Assembly (NCBI GenBank): GCA_047495785.1
Contig: JBLDXI010000011.1
Coordinates: 806,001-870,000, forward strand
Reading direction: 5' to 3'
Origin: Lepidodermella squamata
Lineage: Eukaryota > Animalia > Gastrotricha
DNA: 64,000 nucleotides
In this document: positions 18,735 through 47,780 of the stretch, piece by piece
Layout of the letters: every line of letters starts with the position of its first letter
Numbering within the stretch: position 1 is the stretch's first letter
Translations under genes and position numbers: made by a program
Notes under the pieces: generated by a model
What the model saw: only the letters and a program-made list of their open reading frames with translations
What the model was told of the DNA's origin: nothing
Database searches by the model: none

Positions 18735-21335
18735 CCAGGGAAGCTGATTTGAGCATGCGGTTTTTTGCGGTCTGTTGTTTCTGGGACGATGATAGTATTT
18801 TATAGTATGACTTCGTGCTTGGCAGGCAAACGGTCACGGATTTCTTAATTGAAGCCGAGAGCGTGTGGTTGGCGCGCAAGGTCCCGCCTATGGCGTGGGT
18901 AAATGCGCTTAGGTTGGCGCTTGCTGGCCAGCTCATGCTGGACATGGACCGCATAATGGTTGACGTCGACCCTCGTACTGCGTCGTAAGAGACGGTCAAA
19001 AGAGCGCTGATCAAGGCGGTCGACAAGCCACCCACGAAGGAAGAACAATTTCCCTGGTTTTAGCGTTTTTTTGTCATTTTCCTGTGGTAGCTAAATTGGA
19101 CCATATTCTTAGCAGGGAGTGATGTTAGTACCGCCCCGTTAACCGAGATTTTTACTTTGGACCGGACAGAAACGTCTCTCAAATGAGATCCACATGAATT
19201 TTGACATTTTTAGGGGACTGCACCAAATTTGCAAAGCTGGAAGCTTCTGGTTTTGCAACTGTTGATCTTTGTGGAAATCGGCGTCATGAATGAATAGCTG
19301 ACCACCACTTGACTAAATCTGACCCCTCTGACAAGGCAAATTATTGCCAAAAGTCACATCCGATGCAAAATAGCATTTTTCAAAAATTAACTTTTTCACC
19401 AAAAATCAAAAGAAGCATTTTCGTCACCAATTTCTCAAATTTTATCGCAATTGGACGAGAATTTTAGGAAAGTTTACAACAGACAAGATCTATCGAAAGA
19501 AGCCTATATAGGCTCAATGGGATGATGACCTGGAACTTTCAGCTGAAATCAACATACATTTTTGCAGCCATTTTTAAGCCATATGAATATGCAAATGAAA
19601 TAGGCGGTTTAGATCCATCTCACTTTCTGGGGTGGTTTTTTGCTTTTTTTTGTTGTCTAAACATCATTTCTCATTTTTAAGTCACAGTTTTCTCAACTAA
19701 CCGACATTCGGGGCAAACGCGAACGCCCATCCTCCGGCGGCTTTAGCTGGTGAAAAACCGAAAGTTCAAGCGGACTTCAAGCTTGAGGAACGCAAGGTGA
19801 AGGCCATCGACATACCGTCGTCGGCACCTGCTGAGGATGTAGCCAAGTATTTTGAGGAGAATTATGGCGCAGTGTACGTTGTTAAGCTGAAGCAGGGTAG
19901 GCCCGGCTACAGCACGTATTTGATCGAATTCAAGTCAAAGGACGAAACAGACGTTCATTTGAGCAAAGGTTATATCGGCTTCTTTGCATTGACGAGCAGA
20001 GTGATGCAAGTCAGAGACTATAGCCCGCATGTGAAAATTTGCCAGCGGTGCCAGGGTAGTGGCCACTCCTGGACGTCATGTAGCCAGACGATAACTTGCC
20101 CCGATTGCAGCACTGAGCACTTCAGGGGCGACGAAGCTTGCCCGGTGGTAATCGCGAAAAAGGCTTGCGTTGAGTAAGGCCTGACGGATGAAGCGGCGAA
20201 GGTTAAAATATGTGAAGCGATGCGGTGTCGCAACTGCACGCAGAAACACACCACCAACTACAGGGTGTTTCATAAAAAACCGTACGAGATGAGCCTTATA
20301 TTAGCACGCATAGATAATATAGGAAAAGTACTGCCGTTATCGATTTTTCATGCGCCATGTTATTTTTGCTGTTTCGCGGGGAGAAAAAAACGGCAAGAAT
20401 GCGGCATTTCTACGGTGAAAACGTGGTATCTTACGGTGTGTTTACGGTGAATTCACGGATAACATGCGGTCAATTTCTGTGATATTTAGCCTAAATTATC
20501 CTCGAGGATAAAGATTAACATTGCCGTCAAAATTATTGCCGCGCATTCCTCCTTTTAGCTTTGGAGTGGGTTTAAGTGTGCAATTTCCTCCATATCTGGC
20601 AGTTTAAAGGTAAACTGCGAGCAGATCAACAGTGAAACGAGGGTGAAAAGTTCTGCAAATTTGAGCAACTGTTCCAATAGGAAATTGAATAAGTTTCACT
20701 AGCTTCGCCGGACTTGGCCGGTCAGTTCGGTGTACCCGATGTGGGCGGGTGCTACGGCAGTGACCATAACCTGGTTGCGGTCGATTTCGAACTTCCCAAG
20801 GTGAGGTTCGACTATAATAAGATGAACGAAGGATTCTATCACTCAGGCGGTCGTTAAAGACAAGCTGCTGAAGATTCCGTTGCCTGCAAGAGCGAGTGTA
20901 GAGGAGGTACGAAGGTTCGATGGCGAAATCACTAAGGCCATGCAGGAGGCACGAGATAGATCAGTACCAACGGTGTTAGCAAAACAGCTGAAAAAGTACA
21001 GGTCGACACCGCAGATGGCTGCGTTGATCGAGCGTCGACACATTGCGTTGCGACAGTACCGTTCTACGGGAAACCCTGTGTTTCAGGCCAGGGCGGACGC
21101 GTTCTATGCTCATTTCAATGAGTTAGCAGCCTTAGCTAAAGAGCGCAAGCACACGCGTAACCTTCAGCGGATGGAAAAGCGTAGAAGGGTAGATTCGGGG
21201 GCGTTCTTCCGGGCTTTTCGTGAGATCACAGCTGAGAGTGGGTCGGCACCAGTACCAGCGGTCCGCACCCTGACCAACGAGGCAGGTGAGCTGGTTGTCG
21301 GTGACGCGGCCAGAGCTCACACAATTGCCGGTTGA
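18735..21335 (+). pseudogene. Fragmented non-LTR retrotransposon (ORF1 zinc knuckles plus start of ORF2)
   Basis: CQRCQGSGHSWTSC, CPDCSTEH...C and CRNCTQKH knuckles; DHNLV endonuclease end and pre-RT helical region; stops and insertions at ~19050-19690 and ~20260-20700. Confidence 0.7.
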
Positions 21336-23785: not shown

Positions 23786-25769
23786 AACGTCAATGTTTTT
23801 GCGTCCATTCTTATGCAAGTGGTAAACGACATTTTCCCGTGGAAGCGACTGAGCTTTTGCTTTCAAATTTTAGCTCACAGAAATTTTTAAACTCAATCAG
23901 AGTGTTGCAACATTACCTTTACTCACGACTTTTTTCACTTCCTCTCAATTTTTACTGCTCTTTTCAAGAGTGAATGAACGTGAAATCAAATTCATGGAAT
24001 AAAACAACAGCAACGGCGTAAAAATCACATTGTCTGGAATAATTTTCATCATATTTGTATTGCAAACTCGAAATTTATTCATAGCCGCATTAAGAACCTG
24101 TCCTTTTGGAGGTTTCTTCATTGAGAAATCGGCAAATTTCCAGATATTTTGCAAGAACAAGTCTTATTTCCTAGCGATATCCCCATTACTGCAGCAGCGT
24201 AACGGTATATACGAGTTCGATTTGCGCATGTTATAATGCGCGCATACCGCTTGCACGCCATATGGGACGTATAACGCCAACTACATAGCATATACGCATT
24301 ACACGCATTACCGTTTGCGCTAGCCGCGCCTTATACTATGCAAAAATATAAACATATGTGCGCGGAATGTATGCGCAGCGCGCGCACGTTTACTCTGGAT
24401 ACCAAGGCAACCATTTGCCGCAGGTTATTTTAGTGCGCAAGTTCTGAAACACCCTGTAGCACCAAGCTTTGCTTCGAGAGTTCCGTTGCCTCTTTCCACC
24501 TTTCCGTTCTATTTAATTGTAAAATTTAAGTTTAGAATAATTTTATTTGAAAACAACCTGCTTGGTGGGGAGCTCGAGCTCTTGTTTTCACAATCTTACA
24601 TCCATACGCCAGGAGGACTTCTTCGGTATCAGAACCAACGAATTCTTTTCCCCTGTCATGAACGACAATCCGCGGCCCACCGTAGGTATCGAAGCACTTG
24701 CGCAAAGCAACTGCAAAGTTCTTCATTTCTTTGCTGACCAGTGGCGTTGCCCCGGACAAGCAAGATGTATGATCCTTGCAGTGAAGTATCCATATCTCAT
24801 GAGGAAATTGTTGTTCAATGTGCTGATCAGCTCCTTCTTGGCATTGACATCGACTTCCATAGCGTTAACTGATGCGACAAGAGCAGCGTGTTCGCTTGAC
24901 ATGTCCGGCTTGCTCGACATATCGATTAGGTCGATGTGTAGTTGCGACCAGATACCATCGGCATAAATCGGCTTACCTCCCGGGGCCTTGGGAATTCGCT
25001 TACCACGGAGGCATTGCTCGCAGTTTTCAAGAACAGTTTTGATAGGGTCGACAGGAACAACGTAGTACCGCTACTTGAGCATCTTCTCGATTGCCACTCG
25101 TCCGCAGCATTCGTTCTCGAGGTGAATCTTCTCCGCCAGAATTGGTAGCTTTTCCCAGGTTAGAACATGGTTATTCGGGATTTCGCCTTCACCATCTCTG
25201 CTTTGGTAATACAGCTTGCCATCGCGCGTCGTGAAGGTTCGAATGATCTTGTGTTTCTTATCGACGGTGATGCCATCGACTTTGATTTGTGAAAAACATT
25301 TTACCCATAGCTCTTTCTCCTCCTTGTTTTGGGGAATTAGAGCCGGGGGCATTTCAAATATCAAAGAAGAAAAAAATTAAGAATAATGATAAATGATTGC
25401 AATGACGACCTCTTGAGGCGTGAAAGCATATGGCGAAAGAAGCACATGGCGAAAGGAGCACGTGCTGGCCTATTTTTTCTCTTTATTTGATATTAACCTA
25501 GATATTGCTGCTTAACCTAGTTTTTCCTTGTTATTGTCGATTGAACTAGTTTTTTCTGTTAGAATAAACTAGTTCAATCGACAATATCAGGAAAAACCAG
25601 TTCAATCAGCAATTGTCGATTGAACTAGTTCAATTGTCGATTGGACTGATTGCTCTTTAAACTACGACATATGCAAGAGCACTCAAAAGCTGCTTTAACC
25701 ATCGGGTAAGTAAAACAAGTGGCCAGGGTCGAGTTATCACTCCAATCAAGCATTGTGGGTAAGTTGAAC

Positions 25770-26050: not shown

Positions 26051-26897
26051 TGGATTGGACTTTTAAGTGGTCACACAATGAAGGATCTCATATCCATGAG
26101 GTGACATTCTAGCACAAGAAATGCTCGTCGAGTGGTGAACACAACCTCATGCAGTCTATACGATTTAAGTAATTCGGTGGTGAAACGGTCGCCTACCTTA
26201 TAACGTTTGGCGCAGATTTAAGTATTTGCAGGCACTCAATTTCCCGAGTGGCAGACTCGAGTTTGTAGAGGATCGTAATATCTATCATTTTCACTGCGAA
26301 CATTCCATTCAGGGGAATGTTTCGCTGTAAATTGTCAGTGCCGAAAGAACCTGAGCCACTAGCTCGAATGTAAGAATAAAAAATAATTCAAGAGTTGAAT
26401 AAAAATTATAATCGGAAATGCCGGTGCCTAAATTTGTAATTATCCGGCTTTGACTAAGGTACCGTTTGGCCCCAACTCGCTGGCTACGCCACTACCAACT
26501 CGCGCAGTAGTTCAAACATTAACATTCGGTAAAAATAAGATTCCCTTTTGGGATTCCTAGAATTTTCGATTCTATCTTTCTTGTCATAGAACGCGTGCAT
26601 AACTCTTATTTACATCTCCAATTCACTTGGAACACGTGCCATAATTTGTGCGCATGAATTCCCATTGACATTTCTGATTCCTGATATTCATCAACACATA
26701 GCAAAAGGAAACCTGTATACAACCCAGGTTAGTCTTTACTATATCTGTCAATTCACAGATTTCAAACCCTATTCGGCAACATCAATAATGACAAAAATGG
26801 CGAGATGTAGTTACCGCTCGGTAACAAATACGTTAAAGTGTTAGCTTCTGCTTCTCAGGAATGTCTTAGCTGGACGGTAAAAAGTTGAACTGATGAG

Positions 26898-27254
26898 TTG
26901 TCAAATGTTATTACTCGATCTGAAATCCAACAGCATGCTGATGATATTACCACTTATTTTGCAAGCCAGATCATCAATGAGCTTAAATCTGTCGTACAAC
27001 GTGAAATGAATAGGGTTTGTCATTGGCTTCAATGCAACTCGCTAGCTGTGAACGGGAAAAACATCGCAATTTATACCGCTCAACACATCGCTAAACCCAC
27101 CGCGTTTAATTTCTCGATTACAATCAACGGCACTGTTGTTCCGTCCACCGAAATCATGTCGACTCTCGGCTTCACCATCGACAATAAACTTACGCTCAAA
27201 CAACCTATCAAAGGCGCGGAAAGGCCTGTTCGCGCTAAACAAGCAGTAAAATAG
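26898..27254 (+). pseudogene. Degenerate LINE reverse-transcriptase fragment (one per array unit)
   Basis: HADD (YADD-like), 'VCHWLQCNSLAVN..K', 'LGFTIDNKLT' match the C-terminal non-LTR RT; no ATG. Confidence 0.75.
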
Positions 27255-27802
27255 CTATTTTGATGGCTAGCGGCCTGATCTTCAGCCATGTCAGTTACTG
27301 ACTCAATGACCCGACTTTAGGACAGGCAACACGGACAACGTTGCATCGGCTCCGATCAACTCAAGATCGCTCCGAGACTATGAAGTTTGAACTGTGCTGC
27401 AGTTATGTGTTTTCTTTCAATTTTCAACTACGTCGGGGTGCCCTCTCTTGGTTGTTGTAGCTCCTAAACAAATGAAAAAAATATCAGATAGTCCCTTATG
27501 CCATGACGGCTACGTAATATGGACTTTTCTTTTCAAGGATTTTGAACAAGAGAAGTAACGAACGTCCAAAAGACGTTTTCCATTCAGTTGAATGCAACGT
27601 CTTCAAAGTAATGTTAGAGTTAAGTGGGTTAGACTCTACTTGACAAGGTGGTCAAGTATGTCCGATCATAGGAGAAGCCTTGCTCGATTGGTGAAACCTT
27701 ATCGGACAGCGTATAGATTCGAGGTCTGCGGCGACTGGAGAATTCAAAAAAAGGCCGGCATTCGAGATTTATCTTATTAGTTCCCATTTTTTTTATCTCA
27801 AC

Positions 27803-28681
27803 ATGGCCGTTCTCTTTGCGTTGCTTGCCGCCGCCGCCCTGTTTACCAGTTGTTTAGGCTGTCCAGCATCAACAACTACAACGCCTTGTCCGACTACTGC
27901 ATCCGGATCAACAACATGCTCTTCTGGTAGCACTTGTGTTTCGTCAAGCAATGTTTGCAGTGACACCACAAAAACATGCCAGACATCGGTAAATTCCCAC
28001 CCGCTGTAATAATAAAACAAGCCACAACTTCTCATGCAGGGCTCATTCCAACTCTGCACTGGTACATCCACTGGTGGCTCTGGTATCAGTGGAGTAGCCC
28101 TCAAGGTGTGCATTTCAACCGCTGTTGCTTGCACAAGCGCCTTCGGTAGCGGCATTACTGTATGTTTCTAAATAAATGCCAATTCAATTGTCTTATTCAA
28201 CTTGATGTAGCAACAAACCACAACCCCAAATGCCTACGACACGTTCTCTGCATGCTGCAATGCTGCTTCCAGCAATACAGCAGCGAACCTGAAATACGAA
28301 TACATCCCGGCTCTAGGAACCGGAAATCCAGCGTTAATATGCTACGTCATGACGTCTGACACGCTGCCATACAAAATCGCCACTCCAGCGTCGCCGGCTA
28401 ACACGAAAAAAGGTTACTGCACTCGCTTCCCATACACATCTTCCGGCACGGACGCACTTGCCTCGAGCGCTGATTTGGTTTGTTAACGCGAAATTGTAAC
28501 GTGCTTGTATAAATGGGACTTTTTTCAGAAACTCGCTTCCTCCCCGTTCGCTTACGCCAGTTTTACCTTGTGTTGCACCAGCGTGTTTGGTGGCACCCCG
28601 GCAGGTACCAACGCATGGGGCCCGGCTGTTTCTGCCTATGGTCTTAGCTTTGAATCATGTGCCACAACATCACCGACATAA
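27803..28681 (+). CDS. Secreted Cys/Thr/Ser-rich protein, 241 aa, 4 exons (copy 1)
   Basis: Signal peptide MAVLFALLAAAALFTSCLG; exons 27803-27988, 28040-28159, 28211-28477, 28529-28681 joined by GT-AG introns give a stop-free frame. Confidence 0.88.
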
Positions 28682-29036
28682 AAATGGCGACAGCTCAAAC
28701 ACCCTTGTTTTGCTGGCTTTGAACAACCTGCAAGAAGAACTGTTAATTTTGTTCATAATTCCTTGGCAAAAAAAAACAGTAAGTCTGAGCCAACAAAATG
28801 AGAGTTTATTGCTTGATCGTTGCAATGGTTTTCTACATCTGATTACTGTTTCCATTCACGTTGATGGCATTCAAGAGTTGAATAAAAATTATAATCGGAA
28901 AATATATGATTCTTTGTACACAAAGATATTCTGCCGGTGCCTAAATTTGTAATTATCCGGCTTTGACTAAGGTACCGTTTGGCCCCAACTCGCTGGCTAC
29001 GCCACTACCAACTCGCGCAGTAGTTCAAACATTAAC

Positions 29037-29110
29037 AGTAGTAAGGGGGGGGTCTCCAGCAACGGTCAAAAATTCAAATATTTTCCCACGGTCGGAGAAA
29101 TGAATCATAA
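29037..29110 (+). repeat. Left TIR of element 2
   Basis: Exact reverse complement of 47781-47854. Confidence 0.97.
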
Positions 29111-29628
29111 GAATAAATATGGAAAATGATGGAAAAATAAATGTCAAGGTCATGTGTAAAGTTTTGGCGCCAAAAATTTGAAATAAATGTCAAGGTCGTT
29201 TTCCCACGGTCACGTGACAGCGGCAGGACCGATCATTATTGATTGATTATCGATTATCGATTTTCGGTACTTATCGATTATTGGAAATCACGCTGATTGG
29301 AAATAATGAAATTCTATAGGTCGTTTGATGCGATTTTCCCACGGTCAGGATCGATGCTCGCAAAATGGAAACTTCCGAAAAGTCAAAATAAAGTAAACAA
29401 ATACCACGATTCAGTAGGAAAAAAAAAATAAAATAAAATCCCAAAAATAAATGTCAATTTCGCTGGCTGCGTTGTCTATCGTAACCATCAAATCGATTTT
29501 TTGATTAATAAATAAATTACATACACACCTTGCATTGAAATTTTATTGCGCAATTAAAACACTCACTCACTCACTCACTCCTTGCGCCTCACAAATCACT
29601 CCTTGCGAATTGTGTGAAAATCATCGCA

Positions 29629-29925
29629 TTAATCTAACATGGGGGCATTTAAAATGCTTCGAATCAGCCGAACACGCTCAATCACTTGCACCAGCATTAG
29701 TAAGCCTTCCGCAGTTTCGCGTTGTAAAATCATCAACGAGTCGACTTTACGCTCGAGCTGATCAATTCGGAATCCAATATTGTCAATGGCAAGTGATAAA
29801 TCGCGCAGTTGATTCCGCTGCTGCTGCTGTTGAGGATGGACAGTTACAACCGCAGGAGATGGCTGTTGTTGTTGTTGCTGCTGTTGTCCTTGAGGGCTTC
29901 GAAAACCACTGGCTCGAGAATCCAT
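29629..29925 (-). CDS. Gln-rich coiled-coil accessory protein
   Basis: ATG-initiated 98-aa ORF with poly-Q and heptad-like LSLAIDNIGFRIDQLERKVDSL. Confidence 0.55.
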   Translation of the reverse strand: MDSRASGFRSPQGQQQQQQQQPSPAVVTVHPQQQQQRNQLRDLSLAIDNIGFRIDQLERKVDSLMILQRETAEGLLMLVQVIERVRLIRSILNAPMLD

Positions 29926-30343
29926 CGATACTAATAATGATGATGATGATGATGATCGTGCTGAATGCTCGCAAAGTAGTAGTAGTACTAGTACAGTATC
30001 AAGAGGTTGGTAATAAATTGCGAAAATTTGCAGGAGTAATATAGGTATTGCAACTGCAAAGTGTTGTTAGTGCATGAAGTTACTTAGATGGCGCGAAAGC
30101 ACACCAATAATTTGTAATGCTCCTGCTGCTGTCAAAGTTCCATTATACACTGGCGTTAATGCACTATAAGCGCGGGTAGAGAGGAGCGGCACGTCAACAC
30201 ACGTCACCGCTCATCAAAACGATCACCGCTCACCAAACCCTGGGAATAAAAAAAAACCGCCAGGTTTCGCGCGCTTTACTTTCGTGACATGTAATATATG
30301 CGATTCTTGTTATAATATTGCGAATTGCTAATAATTCGAAGAA

Positions 30344-31135
30344 ATGGAGGAAATTTTCAAACACCCTTGGAATTTTCACCATATTATTGACAACATTTTA
30401 TCGTGTATTCATAATGATCATGAGCTCGGCCATTTGTGCACAGCTTATTTCGAAACCGGGAGGTATGTAGTTAAATATCACCTGGAGAAGCGAATAGAGT
30501 GGTACCTAAGGCCTAACGATAACCGCTTTACGGCTATAACGAGTCGGATTGTTTTCGCGAATAGACCCACAGGTGATAGCCTCACACCATATTGGGTCGA
30601 ATATGCAGCTTTTAAATTCGGCGCGACGAAAAGTCTCTTCGAAATTCTTCAAAATTATCACGTGACAGATTACATCGTCTCCTTATTCATGCGTCAGTTA
30701 TTATTAAATAAATGAAAAATTAATAAAATTATTATTATTATTATCATTATTTCAGACCACGAACCGGATATGAAGTGTGCCCTTGAACCATTCTGGTCTA
30801 TCTACATGCGAGAAAACGATCGAGCGTCGCTCTTGCTAGTGGCAGCGGCTAATCCAAACCTGACAAGCCGCTCGCTATCTCGAATGGTAGAAGCCGGGGC
30901 TGAAATCAATTTCGTGTCGCCGAGATGGCTACTTTCACCGCTATTAGAAGCCGCAGCCACTGGCTCAACCAGTTCGGTTTTGTACCTGGTCAACATGCGT
31001 GCAAACGTATATCACGCCGATTTGCATGGTCAACGCCCCATCGACCGTGTTCATACGTGCGAGTGGGAGAAATATCGCATTTTGCGTCAGGCTGAATCGA
31101 CCAAGACAACATCAAAAATAAAAAGATGGCGCTGA
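30344..31135 (+). CDS. F-box-like plus ankyrin-repeat protein, 1 intron
   Basis: Intron 30693-30755 joins two ORFs in frame; N-terminal FHHIIDNILSCI..LGHLC; ankyrin motifs VEAGAEIN, SPLLEAA..G, ANVYHADLHGQRPID. Confidence 0.72.
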
Positions 31136-31288
31136 TGCGGCGGCGGCGGCCGGTATAATTCCAGATGATGATGATGATGAAGCAGAATAATAACGGTGGT
31201 CAAGACTTGAAATTTTTTTCAGAATAAAAGGCGCGCGCGCCACCCAGTTTTAATTTTTTTCCTATTCATTTTGCAATGTTCTCAAATA

Positions 31289-31852
31289 ATGTTTGATATC
31301 GACGTTTTTATCAGAAATACTGTTGCTACTTTTAACCTGGGCGGTGTTGAACTCGAGCTGCGTAAAATAATCACGTATTTCAGAATGGCAGAAATATCAC
31401 CGAGATTCAGGAATGCCGTTATCATCAAGGAAAAATACTATTCCGCCTTGATTTTCAAAACAGGCAACATTGTTGTTATAGCCAAGAAACCAGAATTGGC
31501 TCTGAAATGCGGGCGGCGGTTAGCGAGAAAACTTCAGCTGCAGAGCAACAATAACTCGATCAAATTTCAAAACTTTCGAATTCGTAATTGTACCGTTACT
31601 GGTCAACTACCAACGACTATTAGCTTCAATACAACTCTCCTGAATGAATTATCTTCAATTAGCACTCGAGTAAAGCTCGACTTGACGCGGTTTCCTGCTT
31701 TGCGAATCGAAAATATTATGGACCAGAAAGTTAGTATTAATTTGTTTTCATCAGGTCGATTTTGTATTACAGGGATAACCGATCCCAAATCTGAAATGCA
31801 AAATATGGCTGTGGAAAAATTTCTTGTTATCGCTTTGGCGAATTCAAAATAA
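31289..31852 (+). CDS. TATA-binding protein (TBP)-like, 187 aa, intronless
   Basis: Two TBP repeats: IRNTVATFNL / PRF / ALIFKTGNIVV / RRLARKLQ, then KFQNFRIRN / RFPAL / LFSSGRFCITG. Confidence 0.9.
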   Translation: MFDIDVFIRNTVATFNLGGVELELRKIITYFRMAEISPRFRNAVIIKEKYYSALIFKTGNIVVIAKKPELALKCGRRLARKLQLQSNNNSIKFQNFRIRNCTVTGQLPTTISFNTTLLNELSSISTRVKLDLTRFPALRIENIMDQKVSINLFSSGRFCITGITDPKSEMQNMAVEKFLVIALANSK

Positions 31853-32113
31853 AATTTCAATTTTTTTGTGTTAAAACAAATCCACCTTAATTTTTTTATT
31901 TTTACTTCGTACTCACTCTATATATTATAATCGCGCACAGCCAATAGCATGCGAGGTGGGTGGAGCTTGTGGACACCACGCACTCACAATTATTTTGGCA
32001 ATCATAACTAGTAGTAGTAGTAGTAGTAGGTAGTAGCCAGAACAACCATAAAACATGAATTGAATAGACCTTAATGTATGAATGACAATCTCAATAAATA
32101 TAATATAAATAGC

Positions 32114-32147
<34 letters not shown>

Positions 32148-32448
32148 CAACACGAGTAATGAAGACTTATACCTCCCTAAATTATGGTTCCAAAATCACT
32201 GTCCTGCCATCCTGCCTGTTGCGGAAAGTGGATTTCGACATTTATATGCAGCAACCTGAAATAATGCTAGCCAAAAGTCACCATTTTACCTAACTACCTG
32301 TCAGCCAAAGTGGAGTTTGACATATATAATTATTGATGCGGACCCGTCATCAATCGTATAATAAACTTGGGTGCAGGAAATATTATCGGACTGAGGTTAC
32401 ACATTATAGTTTTCACATTTATAGAATAATTCTATAGAATAACTTGTT

Positions 32449-32976
32449 ATGGATCAGCAATATAACCCTATTGCTACCTACAACGAACTGTGTGCTGCTG
32501 CTCGCGATGCACAGCGTTTAATAAATATGCTGCAAGCCTTTAAGCAAGTAATGTCCAGAGAGGTGGACATAGTAAAACGGGACCTCAAGTATCTTGAGGA
32601 ACATAGGTAAGCTTTTGACGAATTTTCTGTCGGCTAATCTAATTTATTACGCGTTAGAATGATGATACCCCACACAATGAGTCCCGCCATCGAGGTACTA
32701 CTCGGCCAACAGGTCATACTGGTTGAGATGAATGAACGAAGCTGCGCCCTGAAATGGTTGCTCAACGATATGATTAGCCAGGTAGAGCCAGCTGCCCGGA
32801 CACAGCACGCAGCAGCCCAGCAGGCAGCAGCAGCAGTAGCTCAGCAACAAGCAGCAGCCCAACAGGTAGCAGCGCAGCAACAGGTAGCAGCGCAGCAAGC
32901 AGCCCAACAGGCAGCAACAGCGCGAGCCGTTCTGGACGAGGTCTTGGCCGAAGCCTTGGACGAAAATCAAGAATAG
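32449..32976 (+). CDS. Coiled-coil, Ala/Gln-rich accessory protein, 1 intron
   Basis: MDQQYNPI... exon spliced (AG|gtaagc...ttag|A) in frame to the 32659 ORF. Confidence 0.65.
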
Positions 32977-33372
32977 TCGCAGCAGAAGCAGTCAGAAGCA
33001 GTCAATGTGGAAAAAGAGGAGATACGTCGCCCCACGCCTTGGTGAATATTCATATCACGGTAACAAAATATATGCTTAATTTACTTACACTAATAGCTCC
33101 ACCTGAAAGCTGTCACTTCACTCGGTTCGAAGTTTTTTGTAAATATAGCATACAAAATATGCAATATATTTATTACATTATCTCTATCTCACTCTATCTC
33201 TATCTCTATCTATCGAGGACACACACACACCCACACTGTAATAATGAATTCGACTTCGAATTTTTTGTATATAGCGATTGTTATTATTATTATTATTACT
33301 ATATGCATGCTGGCATGTAAATAGATGTCTCTCTCTCTCTTTCTTTGAAAAATTTTTAAACATAGCGCTTGC

Positions 33373-33416
<44 letters not shown>

Positions 33417-33851
33417 TCGAAAAATTGTAATAATAAGAATCATGTAGAATTTCGCGCTTTAACCTGGTCGAACACTTGAAGTTCCATTTTTTTAAATAAA
33501 ATAAATCATGACTTTTATACTCCCATCTTTGAGTTCATTTTGAGAATGGAATGCAGATTTTTTTTCAGTGCGCGTGTTCATTGAATAATAAAATTGGACT
33601 CACGGCTCGTGGATATGATTGGTGTGCGAGGGGTGCTAACCAACCAATGAGCGCAGAGATGTATAGCATTACTAGTATAGTTTCTTTTGCAGTAGTAGTC
33701 GTACACTACTTCTTAACCGGTAGTTTTCCTACACACTTAAATAGTAACAATTTCCGCGCCAAAACAGCAGCAGCAGCACCGAGTGAGTATTTAAAAATGC
33801 AGGCCTCTCATAAAGAATAATTTACCCAATTTCATCGATATAATTCTAGTT

Positions 33852-36800
33852 ATGTTGACTGACCTCGGCTATCACTGTTATTCTTACCTATTCGGAATTG
33901 AGGTCCATAAGTATTCCATCACGGACTTGGATGCCTTACAATCTGGATTGGGATGGGAAACCGAAGACGATGACGATGAAGGTGGCCATCAAATCGTCGC
34001 ACTTCTGACCAAGATTCAGCTCAGTTTTGAGTCTGTAGCTCAGCAAATTAAGGCAACTTTTCCAGATCGGTAATTTCCATTTATTTCCATGAAAATTTAT
34101 TGCAATCTGTTAATAATAATATTATTAATTTGAAGAGATCACGTTCGAGTTGAATGCCACCACGAAGCCCTGCACACCCCATTCTTAACCTCTTATATTG
34201 AAGTAAAGGAATTATCCGGAGCTCTGATTCTAAACCAGGCCAACTCGGTTTTACAATCTAGGCTGTGCGCAACAATGGAAGGGGGTAATTAATTAATTTA
34301 AAAAAATCAGAAAATTCAAATAAAATAATTATTACTATTTTTAATATTAAAAAGGTTGGACGTTTTCTGTCTTCAGAATCAAGACTAGTGCATTGGAAGA
34401 AGACGAACTAGCCCTAGGGGCTGGTCAGCCGAAGAAAAAGCGACGTTTAGAGCAGACATTGGTCGATTTTATACTGTCTCACAGATCGGTTCTGTTCATA
34501 GACAATGACGATCGCTTGTGCCTATTCAGAGCCATTGTTCACGCTCTAGCTTACCGTGATTTTAATGAGCCGAGGGCTGGTCATGAACGTCACGGAAATT
34601 TCGAACTATTGCGTCCCTATTATTCGAAAGATCGCGATGCATTAACACCATTGGCAATCCAAGAGCGAGCAGTAGCATTCGAATACGAAGGGCAATTGGC
34701 TAAGCAGCTGATGGAGACTGCTGGTATTGATGGAAATAAAGATCGCTATGGCATCGCGGATTTTAAAAAAGCTGTTGAAACAATAGGGCTACCGTATCGT
34801 GGTAAATTCTGGTACCTGAATACTATTTCGACCCTAATTCAAGAATTTAATTTTCTCAGGGATTATTTACAACTTCAAAACGAAACAGGTTGTCGCAATT
34901 CATCCTCCGGCAACTGTTGAAATAGCTGACGAGCGAAAAATTTACATTGGTTTTATCAGTAGTCAAACTATTGCTTCACATGTCGAAGGAGGCGTAGGGT
35001 CGTTCGAAAGTGTCGGACACTACGTCGGCCTAACTGGTATTTCTAACATATCAGGCGGAAAAATCATGTGCCCATACTGCTTCATGCTCCATAAGAAAAA
35101 TTCCGTAGCGCATAAATGCAGTCGAAAGTGCAATAGGTGCCAAACCGTTGGGGCAGATTGTAAAAGCAGTCGAGAGCGGGACATAATATGTCGTGGCTCT
35201 TGCGGACTATATTACCATGGAAAGCAGTGCTATGAAGCTCATGTCAAGGTGAACCCAACTACTGGAAAATCAATCTGCGATTCTTTCTTCATGTGCAGCA
35301 AATGTGGAAGAACGTTGCCGGCGAAAGCTCGAAAAAAGCACAAATGTACGTGGTTGCGCAATTCGAAGCATGCTCAGTGAAATTTAATCTTTTAGGTGAA
35401 ATTCGAAACTGCCGTGTCTGTAAAGGTGATTTGCCTCCACGCGACGAGTCTGCACCGCACGAGTGCGTTATTCAACCTGGTAGGATTGGGAAAGTAAAGC
35501 CGAGGTTGCTTGCGTTGTTTGATTTCGAGACAATTCGAGGCAACGATGGCACCCTGATACCTGTAGTTGTTTGTCTCAATTTCTTTTGCGAATCTTGCAA
35601 ATTCCTACCGAGCTCTGACAAATGTCCCGCAAATTGTACTAATGATGATCCACGCACTCACTCATTTGTCTCTGACGGAAGTGACAATTCTTGCGTTAAC
35701 AAGCTAATGCGGTACATTCTTCAGGAGCAGTTCAGAGGTCTCTTCCTGTTGTCTCACAATGGAGCTCGGTAATTTTAATTTCGAAAAACACTTTAGTTTT
35801 GAGATTTATTTCCCTACTATTACTATAACAAGCTTCGATCACATGTTCATCATGGCTTGGCTGCAGAGACATGAATACCAATTTGAAACTATCCACCACA
35901 ACAATAGTGTCATGGAGATCAAAGTTGAAGGCAGCATTGTATTTCGCGACTTTTACTTGCTAACAATGACGAGTTTGGCAGCGCTTTTCAAAGCATTTGA
36001 CCTACAAAATGAAGACATTACTGGGAAGCAATTTTTTCCCTACAACCTGTTGACGCCCGAAAACTGGTTGAAAGACGTAATCAACGCCCCAACACTGAAT
36101 GACTATGACACGTCAAAAATGTCATCTGCGAAAATCGATGAATTGAAACTACATATCGCACGGAATTCTTCATCTAATTTCAGCCTGAAATCGGAAACTG
36201 TTGCGTACTGTCATAGCGATGTCGTATTGCTACAGCAATGTGTAGTCAAATTCCGTGAGCTGATCCGTGAAATAACAACCATACCGGGGTCTTGTGACGA
36301 CGGTATCGACCCTATCGCAGGTAAACCTAATAAAAAGTCCCTTTTGAATGAACCTCCACCTTAAAAATTTCTGCTTTTGAAGAGTCGCGAACTCTTGCTT
36401 CACTATCAAATTTGATTTGGAGAACTCTTTATCTGGATAAAAATCTGCCTATACACCTGGTACCAAATACAGGTTATTCCGCGGGGTACATTTTTATTAT
36501 TTTTACTTTTGATGAACATGATGGGAATTCTGTAAACCTCTCAGACCGAATTATTCCCGCGAATCGGTGATTTGGTTCGAATTTTTATCACAAAAAAGTA
36601 ACAAGCGGATTCTGCATGCTGGAAATTCGAATGGCGAGGTCACCATCAAGTTGCCAGAAACTTCAAAATTCTATCGATTCAAACCAGACGGGGTTGTTCT
36701 GGATGAAAATGGTCACATTCGCGAAGTATTTCAATATCATGGTGATCATTGGCACGGTTGTTTGCGATGCTATCCTGACTGCACGAATAAGCTACACCCG

Positions 36801-38942
36801 GTCCGGAATGTCACCTTTGGTGAGTTGTATCGTGAGACACTGGCGAAAGATCAGGCGGTAATTGACGCCGGCTATCAGCTAACTGTCACATGGGGATGCG
36901 AAGCCAAGCGAATCATGGCTGAAGACACTGTTTTAGCAGGCGAAATCGAGCGAACACTCACTATTGTTGACAGAGCTATGCCACGGCAATTTTACACAGG
37001 TGGACGCACCGAGGTATAATAATAATAATAACTTTTATGCAAGACCACCAAGTAACAGTCATAATGACTGTTCACAGGTTTTCAGGCTACATTACGAGAC
37101 ATTACCAGGGGAGAAGATAAGGTATTTGGATGTGAATAGTCTGTACCCGGCTGTGCTGAGCTCGAAGCTTGGATCGGTGCAAGACGGATACGAGGAAGTA
37201 TTTTTTCCTTACGGCAAGCCATGCCCGAAGGTTTTGGCAATGCGAAACAATGACATTGATCTGCGAGCACACTTCTTTTCGAAAGAAGATCCAAGCTTTG
37301 GACTTACTAGTTGCCTCGTACGAATCAAGCGTGATGTCTACCTGCCAATTCTAGGGTATAGAACGTCCAGAGGCTGCCTGAAATTCGGATCTTGCCGTTC
37401 ATGTATGGAACTGGGAGCTCAAGTCGCATGTGTACACAATGACGAAGAACGATGCTTTCATGCTTACGTGACAACTTCAGAATTGAGGCTCGCGCTCGAT
37501 TATGGTCAATGCGAAATCGTCCGCTTCTATGGTACTAAATTTTCCTAATTTAATTGTATCTTCCCTATGATATATCGTGGGCATCTCTTCATAGAGACAT
37601 ACCACTACCCGAAGAAATCCAACATGATATTTCGTTCGTTCATTTACGCTGGGCTAAAAGTGAGTAATCAGTAGCTTATTTAACCTTTTGTTTGAACTAC
37701 CTGTTCACTCTAAAGATCAAGCTCGAATCCAGCGGCTATGATGGGCCTGACATTGATGACTACATTGAGACTTGCTCAAAACTGTACGGGTTTAAGATGG
37801 ATAAAGACAAGCTGAAGAACCCCAATTCAGCACTGAGATCCCTTGGGAAATTGCTGTTAAACACTGGTTGGAATTGTTTAGTTGGCTAATAATTCTGATA
37901 ACCTTCCATCTCTCTCTCTTTTTATTTTAGCTTATGGAAAACTGGGTCTTAGACCTGATGGAATTCAAGTTTCATATGTCGACACACCATCAGAGTTGTT
38001 GAGACTACTTCGAAGACCTGGCATGAAAATTCATGACATTGCCGTATTGCCTCCGAGTGAAGACTTCGAAGATGATGGTGATGGGATGCTAACCAAAGAA
38101 CGGTTACGCATCACTCATTCAACTGAATTGGAAGAGTTCCAACCCTCGTTACCTGTGTCTAACATTGTTCTAGCAGCCATGGTTACTTCTGCTGCTAGAA
38201 TTTACCTCTTCAAACAGCTCCATCGGCTCCAGGCAACCTTGTTGTATACTGATACTGGTGAGAATTCCGAAACAAAGTGCCCTAAATTCAACCATGAGTC
38301 GATCTTTCATTCATGTTTTAGACTCTTGCATTTACGTGGAAAAGCCGGGATCAGCCGTGCCACTGCACACAGGCGACTGTCTGGGTAAATATATTGAACC
38401 GTTCAGAATAAAAATGAAAAAAAATCGGAATGAATATTCTTAAACTATTATAGGTAACTGGAAAGATGAGATCGGATCGGGAGATTACATCACAAAGTAA
38501 GGAATGAATATAACGAATTCAAAATCCAAGGTTAAATGTACCTTTATCAGATTTATTGGTTTGGCACCGAAGACGTATCTGATACAACAATCTAACGGAG
38601 TAAGCTCTCCTGAACTTCTGACTAAACGAACAATTCTTAATCTAATTATTGTACTAGCAAACTACAATTCGAATGAAAGGCTTCCAGCTGAAACCTGCCC
38701 TCGAGAGGCAAGTCAACTACGACAGTTTCATGCGACTTCTTCACTCTATCAATGCTGACAAGAACGCAGACGAGGCTTGTTTGAAGTTGGAACAGCAGGT
38801 TTGGCGCCGATTTCAGTGCCATCCCTATGCAAAGGTTGCAATTCAAGATGTGATAAAAACACTCCGATTCAAGTTTATGAAACGCTTCATTTCAGATTAT
38901 GAAACATTCGAAACTGTACCCTTTGGTTATATTAAGGGCTAA
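33852..38942 (+). CDS. pPolB with OTU-like, Cys-rich and Vsr-like domains; 15 introns
   Basis: Splicing restores LFDFET, HNGARFD, YCHSDV, DVNSLYP, KLLLNTAYGK, YTDTDS, APKTY and a terminal VPFGY, with no stops or frameshifts found. Confidence 0.93.
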
Positions 38943-38958
38943 CGGACTGAATTGTGAG

Positions 38959-40121
38959 CATGGCGATGTACAATAATAATAATAATATCGCCATGCTTTC
39001 TGACGAGGACTATGTAACTCTTGATGAGCTTTTACATCCATTATATTATACTGCTAACTTGCCCAGTTCATTTCGATCTATTAAAATTCTGTACGAAGCT
39101 GCAAAGGCCAGGTATCCAAATAATCGGGTCATTACCTATAAAACAGTTCGAGAATGGCTATCGGCTCAACCGGCTTATAGCCTTTTCCGGCAAGCTTCTA
39201 CGCGCAATCGTAAGCTTTATAGGCGAGTTGCGGTACATGCTAAGGGTTCCACCTTTGCTGGGGACCTAATGGAAATTACGAAGGAATATCAATTTTTCAA
39301 CGCGAGAAAGAAGTATGTCCTATGCATAAAGGACCTTTTTACCCGCAAAACTTGGTTGAGGGTGTTGAAAAATAAAACAGCTGCTATAGTGCTTGGTGCG
39401 ATTAAAGGTATCATGTCCGAAATCGACTTGATCCCTAATCAGGTAATTACTGACAAAGGTAAGAGAAAACATCTGTCTGCCGCAGTGTCTTAATCTCCAT
39501 TTAAAATCTCTGATCTAATTAGGATCCGAGTTTCGCGATAAGAAAGTTCAAAAGTACTTTTCTGATCTCGGCGCCAGGTTTTACCTCACTAATTCTCCCA
39601 AGAAGGTGGGTGCAATCGAGACATTTATCAAGAACCTTCGAATGCGATTGGTTCGATATATGATGGCTAATAACACTAAAAATTTCATCGATAAACTTGA
39701 CGACATTTTGGATGCAATCAATAGCTGCCCAAATTCAACAACCGGCTTTAGCCCTGATGAGTTATGGAACCTTAACCCTGAATTGAATGTGGCGCTTTCG
39801 CAACCCGGTTTCATGACTGTTTATGAGGATCACCCAGACAATTTAGTCGCTCATCGAAACGCTTTCAAGACGATTCGCCAAATACGAGTGAAATTCAATT
39901 TGGGAGATCGCGTTCGGATCTTGCAACAGCGGAAAATTTTCAAAAACCGAATTAAACACCCGATTTTTAGCGACAGAATCTACCATGTGACTGAAATTCT
40001 TCCTCAAAATGATCACTCGACGGTGGCTTACCGCGTATCATCTGACCCCAACGATAAATCCGGGCAACTGAAGCGTGTTTTCTACACGCATGAGCTCCAG
40101 AAGTTATATAAAGAGAAGTGA
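38959..40121 (+). CDS. rve integrase, 1 intron, no chromodomain
   Basis: YYTANLPSSFRS, GDLME; intron 39459-39523 restores TDKGSEF; AIETFIK; ends at YTHELQKLYKEK. Confidence 0.92.
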
Positions 40122-40136
40122 TTTCGCACGCACCTT

Positions 40137-40409
40137 ATGGTAATGTCATCCATTTCAAATCCCGAACTTGCGTCAACTGATCGTCGATCTCAGCAACTTC
40201 GACCTTTTCTCCTTGCAACGAGAACCGCAACTGCTTTTCAACCACCGAGTTTATCAAGCGTACCTAGATCCTCTTCATCATTAGCATCGCGATCAAAGCA
40301 AGTACTCGCCCTGGCTCTTACTCTGGTTTTACTGCTTTTGACCTTGGTTGTCCACCATCTACTATATCCAACCGTACCTACTCTACCTAATAATGCTGTC
40401 AGTCAATAG
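40137..40409 (+). CDS. Small single-pass membrane protein
   Basis: VLALALTLVLLLLTLVVHHLL helix; overlaps the minor capsid start, as in element 1. Confidence 0.65.
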   Translation: MVMSSISNPELASTDRRSQQLRPFLLATRTATAFQPPSLSSVPRSSSSLASRSKQVLALALTLVLLLLTLVVHHLLYPTVPTLPNNAVSQ

Positions 40410-41578
40410 CTACTACGGCAAGGACTTGATTCTAGTTCTACCATCTCATGCGTCATCAGATTTGTATCCTCAAAATACTGCTGCAGAGTTCAAAGTCAAG
40501 CTTCCACATATTATTGGTAAGTTGAATAAACTCGTATCGTGTTGCATCTTGTTACGCCTTCCGATAATAGATTTAGGGAGCGTTGGCTCTCATGAAGCTG
40601 CCCTCCTCGAGGTTTGCACTCCATCGCAGGTTGTTTCGCTGAAAAAGTCCACTTTTTTCGTTTTCAAAACCTCTTGGTTGGACCGTGGCACTCTTGAGGA
40701 ATCACCTTACAACAACCCTTTGGAGTTTGCCGAGTGCCATGTGGGTGGTCGCATCTACGAGACAATGACAGATTACATCAATGACTTGCTCTCTGCTATG
40801 CCTGAATGGGCTGAAATCAACATGGCCTATGAGGAAGGCAAAGATCGCATTCGCTTTGACCTAAAACCCGGCTTCGGGTTGTACCTTCCCGAATTTGCGG
40901 GGCAGATTCTTGGTTTTGGAAAGGCTGTCGTTTTAATTAACGTCCCTCCAGATGAAGAGTCTAGTGGGGATGAAGATTGGCAGCAGAGACATGAACGGGA
41001 ATATTTGAGCCTCTTCAGTCATTTATTGCGATTTATACTGGCCGGAAAAGATGGCAAAAAGTTGGTAATGGCAAATGGGAAAAAACCTACATATCAGACC
41101 GACGAAGATGGTAAATTAACCCTGAATCTTTATCAGAGGAGTTTGGCAGATGAGGTCTCATTGGCCGCTGAGGTTGCTTATCGATCCACGCGCAAAGATC
41201 AGCCGCTCTACTCTGAATTCATTCCGCAAATTCATTTCCACACTCCGCTGATTTATTGCTACACGGACCTCATTGAGCCGGTTATTTGCGGTGATAAAAG
41301 TGTCCCTTTGCTGCGAGTTTTTCCCGCGTCTTCTGGCGCATCCAACAAGCAAAAGTACAACCTGATCAGTTTTGCTGGCTCAACACCGTACTATCACCCA
41401 ATCAAGTCGCAATTTTTGGACACCCTGAGCTTCATGATGTGCCTCGATTCAGGTATCTGTGATTTTCTTCTTCATCGTCAGCTGTGATTTTTACGAATTG
41501 ATGATTTTAGGAGAGAAATTAGTATTTAAACAAGGGAAAAGTATGCTGACAATCCACATACGTCCCATTCGCCATTAA
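40393..41578 (+). CDS. Minor capsid protein, 2 introns
   Basis: LVLPSHAS..YPQNTAAEFKVKLP, IYCYTDLIEP..GDK..PLLRVFP; last exon GEKLVF...LTIHIRP. Confidence 0.87.
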
Positions 41579-41580
41579 AA

Positions 41581-42103
41581 ATGCGACAACCTATTAGCTC
41601 CGATTCATACCTGCACTGGTTTCAGCAACAACAGACTGGTCGTGGGATTTCTTCTTCAATCCAACCATTCACTGGACCCTCTATTGTTTTGATGCCACAA
41701 GTCGGTAATGGCTTGGGTAAGAACGGCGATTAGTTTTCATCAACATTCTTAGGAATTTCTCGTGTGTTGTTTTTTTTCTTTTCAAAAAAAAATATTAGGT
41801 ACTTGGCTCCGAGGTTGGGTACGAAATAGCCTGATTCCATTTCTACCCAGGCTCTTAAACACTGCTGCTACAGCGGCATCCAACATAGCTTCAGATATCT
41901 CCACGCGTCAACAGAGTGGCGCAGATCTCAATGTAGCTGAGGTTTTAAAAAACCGAGGATTGGAAGGTCTCAAGTCTGTTGGCAAAGAAGCTGTTAATCA
42001 TTTAGCTTCTCAGTATGGATCTGGAAAGCGCAAACGCAAAGGGAAACCAAAAAAGCGTGCAGTTTTGTTCAAGCAGCCAAAATCGGATCGCATTTTGTTC
42101 TAA
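41581..42103 (+). CDS. Putative core protein with QxGxG motifs, 1 intron
   Basis: QTGRG, QVGNGLG, QYGSG and a basic tail; homologous to 10304-10807. Confidence 0.8.
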
Positions 42104-42179
42104 TTAAGTGTGTGTATATAAAGGATCTTCAGAAATTGAATAAATTGTAATCGCCCAAGTGCTTTACGTTTTTACAATC

Positions 42180-43528
42180 ATGTCTGACCATGCTATTAGA
42201 GCCGAATTAGCTGTTTTTGCCTCACCTGCATTCACAAATGAAATCACAGGAACGCACGTAACTGAATGCTTTCCAACAACATCGATAAGTGGAGCCCAGC
42301 AGATAACATTTGTTATCCCTGCTTCTGAAGCCTTCACGGACCTCAGTCACACCTATTTATCAATCAAGGCTACGCTAACACCGACGAATGATGACATCAC
42401 AACAGAGACATTTTGCTGCGCGGGCGTAAATAACCTGTTGAACTCCTTATTCGAGGACTGTCACATTTATCTCAACGAATGCTTAATCACGCAGAATTCT
42501 TCGCTCCATAGCTACCAGGCATATATGGAAAACTTCTTATCGGCAACACAAGATATCCAGTCAACAAAGCTCACCAACGTTGGTTGGTACCCTGATACCC
42601 CCGGGTTGTTCAACAATCTGAAGGAAAATGCAGGGTTCAAATCTCGTCGTGCGCTGGTGAAGAATTTCGAACAAAAACCCGTCATCTCTTTGCTGGGGAA
42701 AATTTCGACCGATTTCTTCAATCAGGAACGATATTTGATCCCACAAACAAGCGTGCGAATTAAGCTGACTCTACACAAGCCAGAGTTTTTCCTTATGTCT
42801 GATAATCTGGCAAATTACGAGTTCAAACTTCTGGAGGCGGTCTTGCTAGTAAAACGAGTTGAGGTTGTTCCCGAGGTCACCATTGCACTTGAAAAGGCGC
42901 TATTGGAAGCACCGGCTCGTTACAGTTTCACTCATACGGTGACTAAACCATTCAATTTGCCTACCAATATGACGGCCATTTTCCTCAACAACGTTGTATT
43001 AGGAGTGATTCCCGAAAAGATTGTATTAGGTAAAAAGAAAAAACCCATTTTTTTCAGACCATTCTAATATAACTTGTTTTACCATTGCAAGCCATGGTCG
43101 AGGATGAAGGTATTCAGGGTTCAGCTGCCACCAACCCTTTCAGGTTTCAACATTTCGGTCTTCAGAATATAACAATTACCATCGATGGAAAGGCTGTTGG
43201 TGGCACACCTCTTGCAATGGATTTCGAAGCTAACGATTGTGCCCGAGTTTACCAACTCATGCAAGATACCATATTTCCGACTTCGAATTCAAAGTGTGTC
43301 AACATAAGTCGGGATGATTTCGTCAAAGGTGGTGGCTTTGTCATGGCATTCGACTTGAGTCAGGATTCGGATCCTAATGGACGTTTGACGCAGACAGGAC
43401 AGATGGCGATCAACCTTCTCTTCAGCAAGAAACTGACTTCTCCAACGACTTTGATTGCCGTAATGTATTATAAAAACAAGACGCTAGAAATTCAGGCCAA
43501 CAGAACAGTCCTACATAATTTCTTCTAA
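42180..43528 (+). CDS. Major capsid protein, 1 intron
   Basis: ITFVIP..FTDLSHTYL, FNQERYLIP, NPFRFQHF, FDLSQD; intron ~43031-43090. Confidence 0.9.
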
Positions 43529-43534
43529 GAAAAC

Positions 43535-47775: not shown

Positions 47776-47780
47776 AATCA

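Follow-up and report, generated by a model that had tools for sequence, protein, structure and literature searches.

A complete Polinton/Maverick element within the 64,000-nucleotide stretch of Lepidodermella squamata DNA analysed here (the window) carries a gene for a TATA-binding protein (TBP). Judged from its sequence, this element TBP is real, probably functional and divergent, and it resides in a Polinton that bears introns and looks young. A TBP-labelled gene in a Polinton-like element is already in print, as a label in a figure legend; the divergent copy with the residue pattern described below is new.

The TBP gene and the element that carries it

The gene at 31289-31852 (+) is one uninterrupted, intronless open reading frame (ORF) of 187 amino acids with a pI of 10.15, and the TBP-like protein it encodes consists of a two-repeat core without an N-terminal extension. 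Such a core had been proposed in the sequence-only reading of this DNA and is borne out by Pfam, which matches TBP (PF00352) in two stretches of the ORF at E 5.2e-16 (58.7 bits, cut-off 22.9), and by yeast TBP, which matches residues 8-165 at E 1.5e-9 (phmmer). The assignment of the ORF to the TBP fold is secure from these matches alone. An AlphaFold2 model made with a 78-row alignment (77 TBP matches plus the query) spans residues 1-187 as TBP and is confident over the full length (pLDDT 94.4, pTM 0.86). Foldseek aligns the model to TBP structures at E 4e-14, with TM-scores of 0.79-0.85 among the top rows, and VIA-align superposes it on TBP with Z 19.2 and an rmsd of 2.0 Å over 176 residues, the best non-TBP row having Z 9.1, so that the expected fold is found by structure as well. 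The single-sequence model is poor (pLDDT 36.8), and the good model therefore leans on the TBP rows of its alignment; what it appears to add is that the whole saddle accommodates this sequence, though in an alignment-dependent way. A profile search in six frames found no second TBP in the 64-kb window.

The carrier occupies 29037-47854 (18,818 bp), and the gene lies inside its terminal inverted repeats (TIRs), as had been claimed. The coordinates of the element's features are collected in Table 1. We take an AGT-starting terminus, as seen here, to be the Polinton/Maverick terminal consensus. The element interrupts one copy of a tandem repeat whose unit measures 2,514 bp, and six other tandem units in the window carry the 6-mer of the target-site duplication (TSD) once, which makes them empty sites. 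In sequencing run X1, a contig joins 29030 to 47855, again an empty site. Because the 74-bp TIRs are perfect, the TSD has 6 bp and the empty site is present in six tandem units and in run X1, the Polinton looks young and recently inserted. Between run X1 and the window there are 20 full-depth differences in the element and 0 in the TBP gene, where about 0.6 would be expected, so the comparison is uninformative for the gene. Contig depth in run X1 is about 340-420 for the element, 145-165 for a second Polinton of the window and 67-105 for the lowest long flank contigs; several copies of the element are only suggested by these values, as depth is no copy number.

Table 1. Features of the Polinton and of its immediate ends (positions are those of the window).
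Feature	Position	Strand	Remarks
Left TIR	29037-29110	+	74 bp, perfect, starts AGTAGT; one 6-bp TSD copy just before it, at 29031-29036
Gln-rich coiled-coil-like ORF	29629-29925	-	left arm; no Pfam match above cut-off
Ankyrin-repeat gene	30344-31135	+	immediately precedes the TBP gene; probably two exons with a candidate intron at 30693-30755
Gln/Ala-rich ORF	32449-32976	+	left arm; possibly two exons
TATWTWAA box TATTTAAA	33788-33795	+	64 nt before the inferred pPolB start
Protein-primed DNA polymerase B (pPolB)	33852-38942	+	many frames split by candidate short introns; start codon inferred
TATWTWAA box TATATTAA	38928-38935	+	32 nt before the integrase ATG
Retroviral-type integrase	38960-40121	+	candidate intron 39459-39522
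TATWTWAA box TATATAAA	40105-40112	+	32 nt before ORF 40137, head of the minor-capsid block
Morphogenesis block	40137-44895	+	small hydrophobic ORF, putative minor capsid, PZ-like, putative major capsid, protease, P-loop packaging ATPase
TATWTWAA box TATTTAAA	41523-41530	+	58 nt before the PZ-like ATG at 41581
TATWTWAA box TATATAAA	42115-42122	+	65 nt before the putative major capsid ATG
Putative major capsid (MCP)	within 40137-44895	+	candidate intron from 43030
Adenain-type protease	43535-44026	+	Peptidase_C5 (PF00770), 1.2e-4, 22.2 bits (cut-off 21.3)
TATWTWAA box TATATAAA	44027-44034	+	23 nt before the first ATPase ATG
Right-end ORF	45088-45741	-	217 aa; PC4/Whirly-like by eye, a lead only
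TATWTWAA box TATATTAA	45882-45889	+	43 nt before ORF 45925
Right-end ORF	45925-46308	+	TATWTWAA box 43 nt upstream
Right-end ORF	46301-47257	+	no TATWTWAA box upstream
Right TIR	47781-47854	-	74 bp, perfect; second 6-bp TSD copy just after it, at 47855-47860

The TBP gene sits in the left arm, between the TIR and pPolB, beside the ankyrin gene and two Gln-rich ORFs, and its GC content (0.38) and GC3 (0.39) are at the low end among element genes. The ankyrin call rests on PDB matches to E 2e-6, Pfam staying below its cut-off; an F-box at the N-terminus of the same ORF was seen by eye only and was dropped, as Pfam lends it no support. Pieces of pPolB match PF03175 at 3.4e-17 and 4.8e-4. The integrase matches rve at E 1.2e-3, below the cut-off, and by blastp matches the integrase of the second Polinton (itself rve at 1.4e-11) at 3.7e-26 and 6.9e-21. 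The labels capsid, PZ-like and ATPase are our assumption from the usual Polinton gene order and from motifs; the capsid candidates have no Pfam match, and the ATPase has weak AAA matches. The core genes are common to the second Polinton at 22-36% protein identity. For the minus-strand right-end ORF, a PC4 fold was considered and set aside: atlas scores are 0.80-0.84 and Whirly makes up 12% of one cluster, with no Pfam or PDB match. No TFIIB or RNA polymerase was matched by Pfam among the ORF pieces scanned, a search that intron-split or very divergent genes could escape.

The sequence-only reading had set the intronless TBP gene against intron-bearing core genes. The TBP gene is indeed a single ORF, and where pPolB, integrase, MCP and ATPase are interrupted, a short AT-rich GT..AG stretch can in most cases span the gap; two such stretches are 39459-39522 and 44502-44548, at both of which the gene of the second Polinton runs without a break; a GT..AG candidate is lacking at 1 of the 20 junctions tested. 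The contrast does not extend to the protease and two right-end ORFs, which are likewise single ORFs, and the intronless state of the TBP gene therefore says little. The PZ-like gene is also split by a short GT..AG stretch. For the MCP break and for several of the pPolB breaks, the positions in the two Polintons roughly coincide, at about 22-36% protein identity, and this agreement suggests old shared introns.

The second Polinton, which is partial and of another family, lies at 1-13,500, with pPolB on the plus strand and the other core genes on the minus strand. Its integrase is intronless and has a chromodomain (Pfam 1e-9). Inspection by eye near 13,500 revealed no end of the AGTAGT type, and a profile search found no TBP in the part inside the window, the left part lying beyond it. 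The tandem array extends over 26400-29036 and 47855-64000 in at least seven near-identical units of 2,514 bp, and it seems to contain a spliced host gene whose product is a secreted Cys/Thr-rich protein, with frames at 27695-28009 and 28211-28486. Decayed host repeats were noted by eye at 19701-21335 and 24532-25376, with a gag-knuckle/LINE-like stretch and an integrase-like stretch on the minus strand. Rfam has no match across the window.

Residue pattern, selection and descent of the element TBP

Residues of the element TBP were counted, column by column, against its 77 aligned homologues. Both asparagines expected on the DNA face are present in register, namely N10 (N in 72/77 homologues) and N100 (74/77). 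The claim of four intercalating phenylalanines is only three-quarters shown: F56 (75/77), F135 (74/77) and F153 (75/77) are in register, whereas the first Phe column holds R41 (F in 71/77) and F40, the Phe of 'PRF', stands one place earlier, where none of the 77 has Phe. This shift is the same in three alignments (the 77-homologue set, phmmer and L-INS-i). As is usual for the TBP family, Phe occupies L5.1 in each lobe (F56 and F153) and the two central Asn are present. Along with N10 and F56, the DNA face keeps V12 (65), T14 (61), L54 (66), V62 (63) and K67 (52); further residues kept besides N100, F135 and F153 are P136 (70), directly after the third Phe, K147 (55), T161 (66) and G162 (77). 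The N-lobe Thr-Gly pair is lost, with I64 for T (60/77) and A65 for G (76/77), and the DNA face of the C-lobe has become more polar through T102 for V (64/77), S149 for V (51), N151 for L (56) and C159 for V (56). Position 164 is Thr where 61/77 homologues have Lys. The net charge equals that of a plant TBP core (28 K+R, 14 D+E).

The basic patch of the N-lobe is largely kept (R32, E35, R76, R77 and R80), with M33 and Q85 changed; the matching to the five published patch positions presumes the usual yeast numbering. This patch is the contact for TFIIA, TAF1, Mot1 and Brf and is generally not conserved in viral TBPs (PMC7221094, in excerpt). In the C-lobe, the TFIIB stirrup reads L130-D131-L132-T133-R134 against Y-E-P-E-L. 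The replacement of the acidic stirrup noted from the sequence is thus correct in that the stirrup is changed and the second TFIIB-contacting Glu has become T133 (E in 68/77), and overstated in that D131, in the column of the first (E in 61 and D in 11 of 77), is still acidic. The two stirrup Glu of canonical eukaryotic TBP (C.L3.2 and C.L3.4) are in any case both absent. These two residues are tied to TFIIB contact, and reversing either of them in human TBP lowers transcription (PMC7221094, in excerpt).

The element TBP keeps 20 of the 35 most conserved TBP columns, the fewest of the 78 aligned rows, and differs in the other 15. Its identity to the family falls from 57% to 36% and 18% by column class, a gradient that uniform decay would give likewise and that is therefore non-discriminating. 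To estimate what drift would produce, ten near-consensus TBPs were evolved neutrally in 3000 simulations to 36% identity with the family majority residue (about 0.42 substitutions per site). No stop arose in 52/3000 runs, at least as many hydrophobic columns (36/42) were retained in 99/3000, and substitutions were as conservative in 108/3000. At least five indels lie in the core, all of them frame-preserving, and both core ends are complete. Owing to the simulations, the in-frame indels and the complete ends, long purifying selection on the gene is moderately favoured, each test by itself reaching only about 2-4%.

Relatives of the gene were sought in several ways. A word-indexed protein search limited to near lengths passed 0 of 76 candidates as close TBP relatives and returned no relatives for the protease or an MCP piece. 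Scans of viral and metagenome contigs gave no match to the TBP locus, nor to two short divergent TBPs and the integrase. A search of representative sequences with the element TBP gave 200 matches at E<=0.001, and among the 150 of these 200 that were listed, the genuine TBP matches are 23-44% identical over the matched stretch. The top match listed (P0002), together with P0006, P0063 and P0123, proved to be repeat artefacts and not TBP relatives, and two others (P0003 and P0004) are duplicated TBP-type cores.

A phylogeny was computed with FastTree for 133 of 147 TBP cores, mostly unlabelled rows, after the four artefacts and rows with fewer than 140 model positions had been dropped, and was rooted at the midpoint. 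The element TBP forms the longest terminal branch among the 133 cores and has no resolved sister (support 0.515), and for these reasons the tree says nothing on the donor. In structural alignments, identity is 25-28% to eukaryotic TBPs, 19-23% to archaeal TBPs and 8-19% to viral TBP-like models (BFVD), which favours a eukaryotic cellular source; such an ancestry is plausible. Of the atlas clusters nearest to the element TBP, the first two are 50-59% viral and the third is mostly eukaryotic, with Nematoda the commonest. The earlier suggestion of a captured basal transcription factor accordingly holds as far as a TBP-fold gene in a Polinton and a plausible eukaryotic descent are concerned, while a recent capture from the host is unsupported, given the long branch and the lack of a resolved sister.

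A TATA-like box upstream of core genes

Seven of the 15 element ORFs have the motif TATWTWAA upstream, on the sense strand and at a distance of 23-65 nt (110-nt upstream windows); it reads TATATAAA three times and TATTTAAA and TATATTAA twice each. It is absent before the four left-arm ORFs, including the TBP gene, and before the minor capsid, the protease, 45741(-) and 46301; upstream of the protease and 45741(-) there is TATAAAA instead. No site lies in the TIRs or the subterminal repeats. The motif was found and tested on the same data, with several start codons inferred: in none of 60 dinucleotide shuffles did the best motif of this class cover 7 windows (maximum 6), and TATWTWAA itself reached at most 4 windows in 2000 shuffles. 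An equally good motif, TATAWWAA, covers 7/15 windows, one left-arm ORF included. In the upstream windows of the PZ-like and Gln/Ala-rich ORFs the ATG was off by 2 and 4 nt, which leaves the box matches unaffected. Where the box stands 23-32 nt before an ATG, the transcript would have hardly any leader, or none, unless translation began at a later Met.

The TATATAAA boxes fit what we take to be the canonical TATA consensus, and host TBP could therefore read these three. The second Polinton has plain TATAAAA before four genes, so the complete element is not alone in having TATA boxes ahead of its core genes.

Some further motifs were noticed along the element. A TATATAAAAAG box stands right at the ATPase stop and is followed by AATAAA (44893-44930) but by no long ORF; a short or antisense RNA running towards ORF 45088-45741(-) could start from it. 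Upstream of both the ankyrin and the TBP genes (30245-30275 and 31223-31240), GAATAAAA is followed by a GCGCGC run, possibly a second promoter class for left-arm genes, although the AATAAA at 31223 might rather serve the ankyrin gene as its poly(A) signal. The TIRs and the 47-51-bp subterminal repeats (29083-29342 and 47236-47808) carry motifs resembling sites of host factors. We regard TTCCCAC as CSL/Su(H)/LAG-1-like, TTTGGCGC/TTTCGCGC as E2F-like and TCAAGGTC as NR5A/FTZ-F1-like. TTCCCAC occurs 7 times in the element against 1.9 expected, and TCAAGGTC once per repeat; the shuffle test overstates the significance of such sites because repeats inflate motif counts. Such metazoan-type sites, together with the short introns, are in keeping with an animal host. 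It may be speculated that the ankyrin gene (30344-31135), together with the CSL-like terminal sites, could mimic a Notch- or IkB-type regulator.

Possible roles, known counterparts and significance

From its sequence and by analogy, we propose that the element TBP is an early factor for the promoters of the element's core genes that works with host RNA polymerase II (Pol II), a reading to which we give an even chance. The protein, made early from the left arm, would act as the element's own promoter-recognition factor, bind the TATWTWAA boxes before the polymerase, integrase, capsid and packaging genes, and help to load host Pol II there. Because it retains both Asn, three in-register Phe, the Pro that follows the third Phe and a net basic charge, it would be expected to bind and bend AT-rich DNA. 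Its specificity would probably differ from that of host TBP, as T102, S149, N151 and C159 make the C-lobe DNA face polar and Thr-Gly is lost (I64, A65), and it could admit the non-canonical TATTTAAA and TATATTAA. With R32, E35, R76, R77 and R80 kept, it may still meet host N-lobe partners such as TFIIA, and TFIIB would be bound weakly or otherwise (D131 kept; T133 and R134 changed). As no RNA polymerase or TFIIB turned up among the ORF pieces scanned and the candidate introns of the core genes are of spliceosomal type, host Pol II would transcribe the element in the nucleus. What the element would gain is a two-step cascade in which it has promoter factor of its own while it is being amplified. 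The fold and residue pattern, the moderate signs of selection, the enrichment of the box, the plain TATAAAA in its place in the second Polinton, the youth of the element and the herpesvirus precedent described below speak for this role, and the shared upstream box lends indirect support to the earlier suggestion that the protein would drive element promoters. Several observations count against this promoter-factor role: the three TATATAAA boxes are readable by host TBP and TATAWWAA scores equally; the TFIIB stirrup is degraded and neither a TFIIB nor a domain that binds Pol II was found, which leaves no explanation of how the polymerase would be reached; the first Phe is off register and 15/35 of the most conserved columns differ; and no homologue in a related element turned up in the collections searched.

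The same protein might act by interference, in line with the earlier suggestion that it competes with host TBP. As a decoy or dominant negative, it would sit on TATA-like DNA or sequester Mot1/BTAF1, the TAF1 N-terminal domain, TFIIA and Brf without recruiting TFIIB, and host genes would be repressed or host TBP freed for the element's boxes. We consider this unlikely, although the N-lobe patch is largely kept (R32, R76, R77, R80), unlike in viral TBPs generally (PMC7221094, in excerpt), the second TFIIB-contacting Glu is lost, and the left-arm setting with an ankyrin gene and Gln-rich ORFs resembles host-modulating cargo. The retained Asn/Phe/Pro DNA face would be superfluous in a pure protein sponge, the first acidic stirrup residue persists as Asp, and the non-canonical box variants are easier to explain by a dedicated reader. 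That the gene is a mere passenger, a captured retrocopy of cellular TBP now drifting while host TBP alone reads the element's boxes, seems to us quite improbable. Its frame has stayed open across about 0.42 simulated neutral substitutions per site (no stop in 52/3000), the indels are in frame, the core ends are complete and the model is confident throughout; a drifting copy would nevertheless be consistent with its having turned up in no related element in the collections searched, with its being the most diverged of 78 rows at conserved columns (20/35), with graded identity (57%/36%/18%) also expected from uniform decay, and with its low GC (0.38) and GC3 (0.39). Least probable, and in our view very improbable, is a DNA job outside transcription, in which the protein would bend AT-rich termini or an origin in protein-primed replication, excision or packaging. 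A TBP lobe is reused as a nucleic-acid-binding module in RNase H3 (PMC7221094, in excerpt), the TFIIB surface is degraded, and the box at 44893 has no long ORF behind it; against this, TATWTWAA is absent from the TIRs and subterminal repeats, the sites precede genes on the sense strand, and the N-lobe cofactor patch is kept.

Several known systems invite comparison. Cellular TBP (yeast 1tbp/1ytb, human 1cdw, Arabidopsis 1qn5) is like the element TBP in its saddle (Z 19), both Asn, three Phe, the Pro, a basic pI and much of the N-lobe patch, whereas the element TBP has 25-28% identity to it, a shifted first Phe, no Thr-Gly, a polar C-lobe face and LDLTR for YEPEL, and is encoded by a mobile element. 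TRF2/TBPL1 is likewise a divergent TBP paralogue, thought to read other promoter sequences. Nucleocytoviricota mostly encode their own RNA polymerase. TBPs of large DNA viruses are well known, and the TBP-like proteins of Nucleocytoviricota are, like the one described here, virus-borne and divergent, with two lobes and a variable TFIIB stirrup; these viruses mostly have their own TFIIB and have lost the N-lobe patch (PMC7221094, in excerpt), whereas the element TBP keeps most of it and is 8-19% identical to BFVD models. TBPL1 has Trp at N.L5.1 (PMC7221094, in excerpt), where the element TBP has Phe (F56), F135 being kept as well, and the TRF2/TBPL1 feature is thus absent at this position.

The herpesvirus vTBP (KSHV ORF24) has a polar DNA face and no acidic TFIIB residues, and reads TATTWAA late promoters with host Pol II (PMC12529657, in excerpt). 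The element TBP resembles the beta/gamma-herpesvirus vTBPs in its more polar DNA face and eroded TFIIB acids, and two of the seven element boxes are TATTTAAA. KSHV ORF24, in contrast, is large and built of several domains, assembles with Pol II in advance and works among six viral activators (PMC12529657, in excerpt), while the element TBP is a bare 187-aa core for which no such partners were found, and it is closer to cellular TBP than ORF24 is. Membership in the herpesvirus vTBP family (ORF24/BcRF1/UL87) is ruled out, as the core lacks extra Pol II- or DNA-binding domains.

The printed precedent is that of Starrett et al. (2021), who label a TBP in a MELD virus with an adintovirus-like PolB in the legend of their Fig. 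5, with no analysis in the parts of the paper available (PMC8502044; preprint 10.1101/697771). That element is also a midsize linear dsDNA element of Polinton/adintovirus type with a TBP-like gene, the likeness resting on the legend label; the label stands in a section on non-animal datasets, whereas the carrier described here is integrated, bears introns and has an animal host. A search for TBP in one supplement file of that study gave no match. Animal Polintons/Mavericks share with the element TIRs, a 6-bp TSD, pPolB, integrase, ATPase, protease and capsid-type genes, and cargo near the left TIR. The nematode Mavericks of Widen et al. have a cargo region beside the left TIR, with protease or kinase cargo, and intronless core genes (10.1101/2022.07.12.499685, in excerpt), unlike the present element with its intron-like breaks in core genes and TBP in the cargo. 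'TATA' has 0 occurrences in the available text of that preprint, as have 'TBP' and 'TATA' in that of Jeong et al. (10.1101/2023.08.22.554363). Within the literature searched, which took in few subscription papers, no analysis of a Polinton TBP was found, and the legends of Starrett et al. are the only mention; PMC12220804 yielded nothing on the subject. The value of the finding is tempered by this precedent and by the absence of found relatives.

How integrated Polintons/Mavericks turn on their capsid and replication genes, and whether particles form, is a long-standing question. The formation of virions by Mavericks is presented as a hypothesis by Widen et al. (10.1101/2022.07.12.499685, in excerpt). 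A small, soluble-looking TBP with a candidate cognate box offers a direct assay that takes one protein and a few short probes. Its kept cofactor patch and eroded TFIIB stirrup are unlike both cellular and giant-virus TBPs, and because of this pattern the protein bears on how far a TBP can change and yet work with host Pol II. Tentatively, and with more doubt than confidence, we suggest that some animal Polintons run a minimal viral late-transcription switch, in which a 187-residue TBP of altered specificity and TATWTWAA would act with host Pol II and without a viral TFIIB, and CSL-, E2F- and NR5A-like terminal sites would time the cascade. If this is true, no smaller counterpart of the herpesvirus late pre-initiation complex would be known, and the switch would also be the trigger still missing from the account of Polinton virion production.
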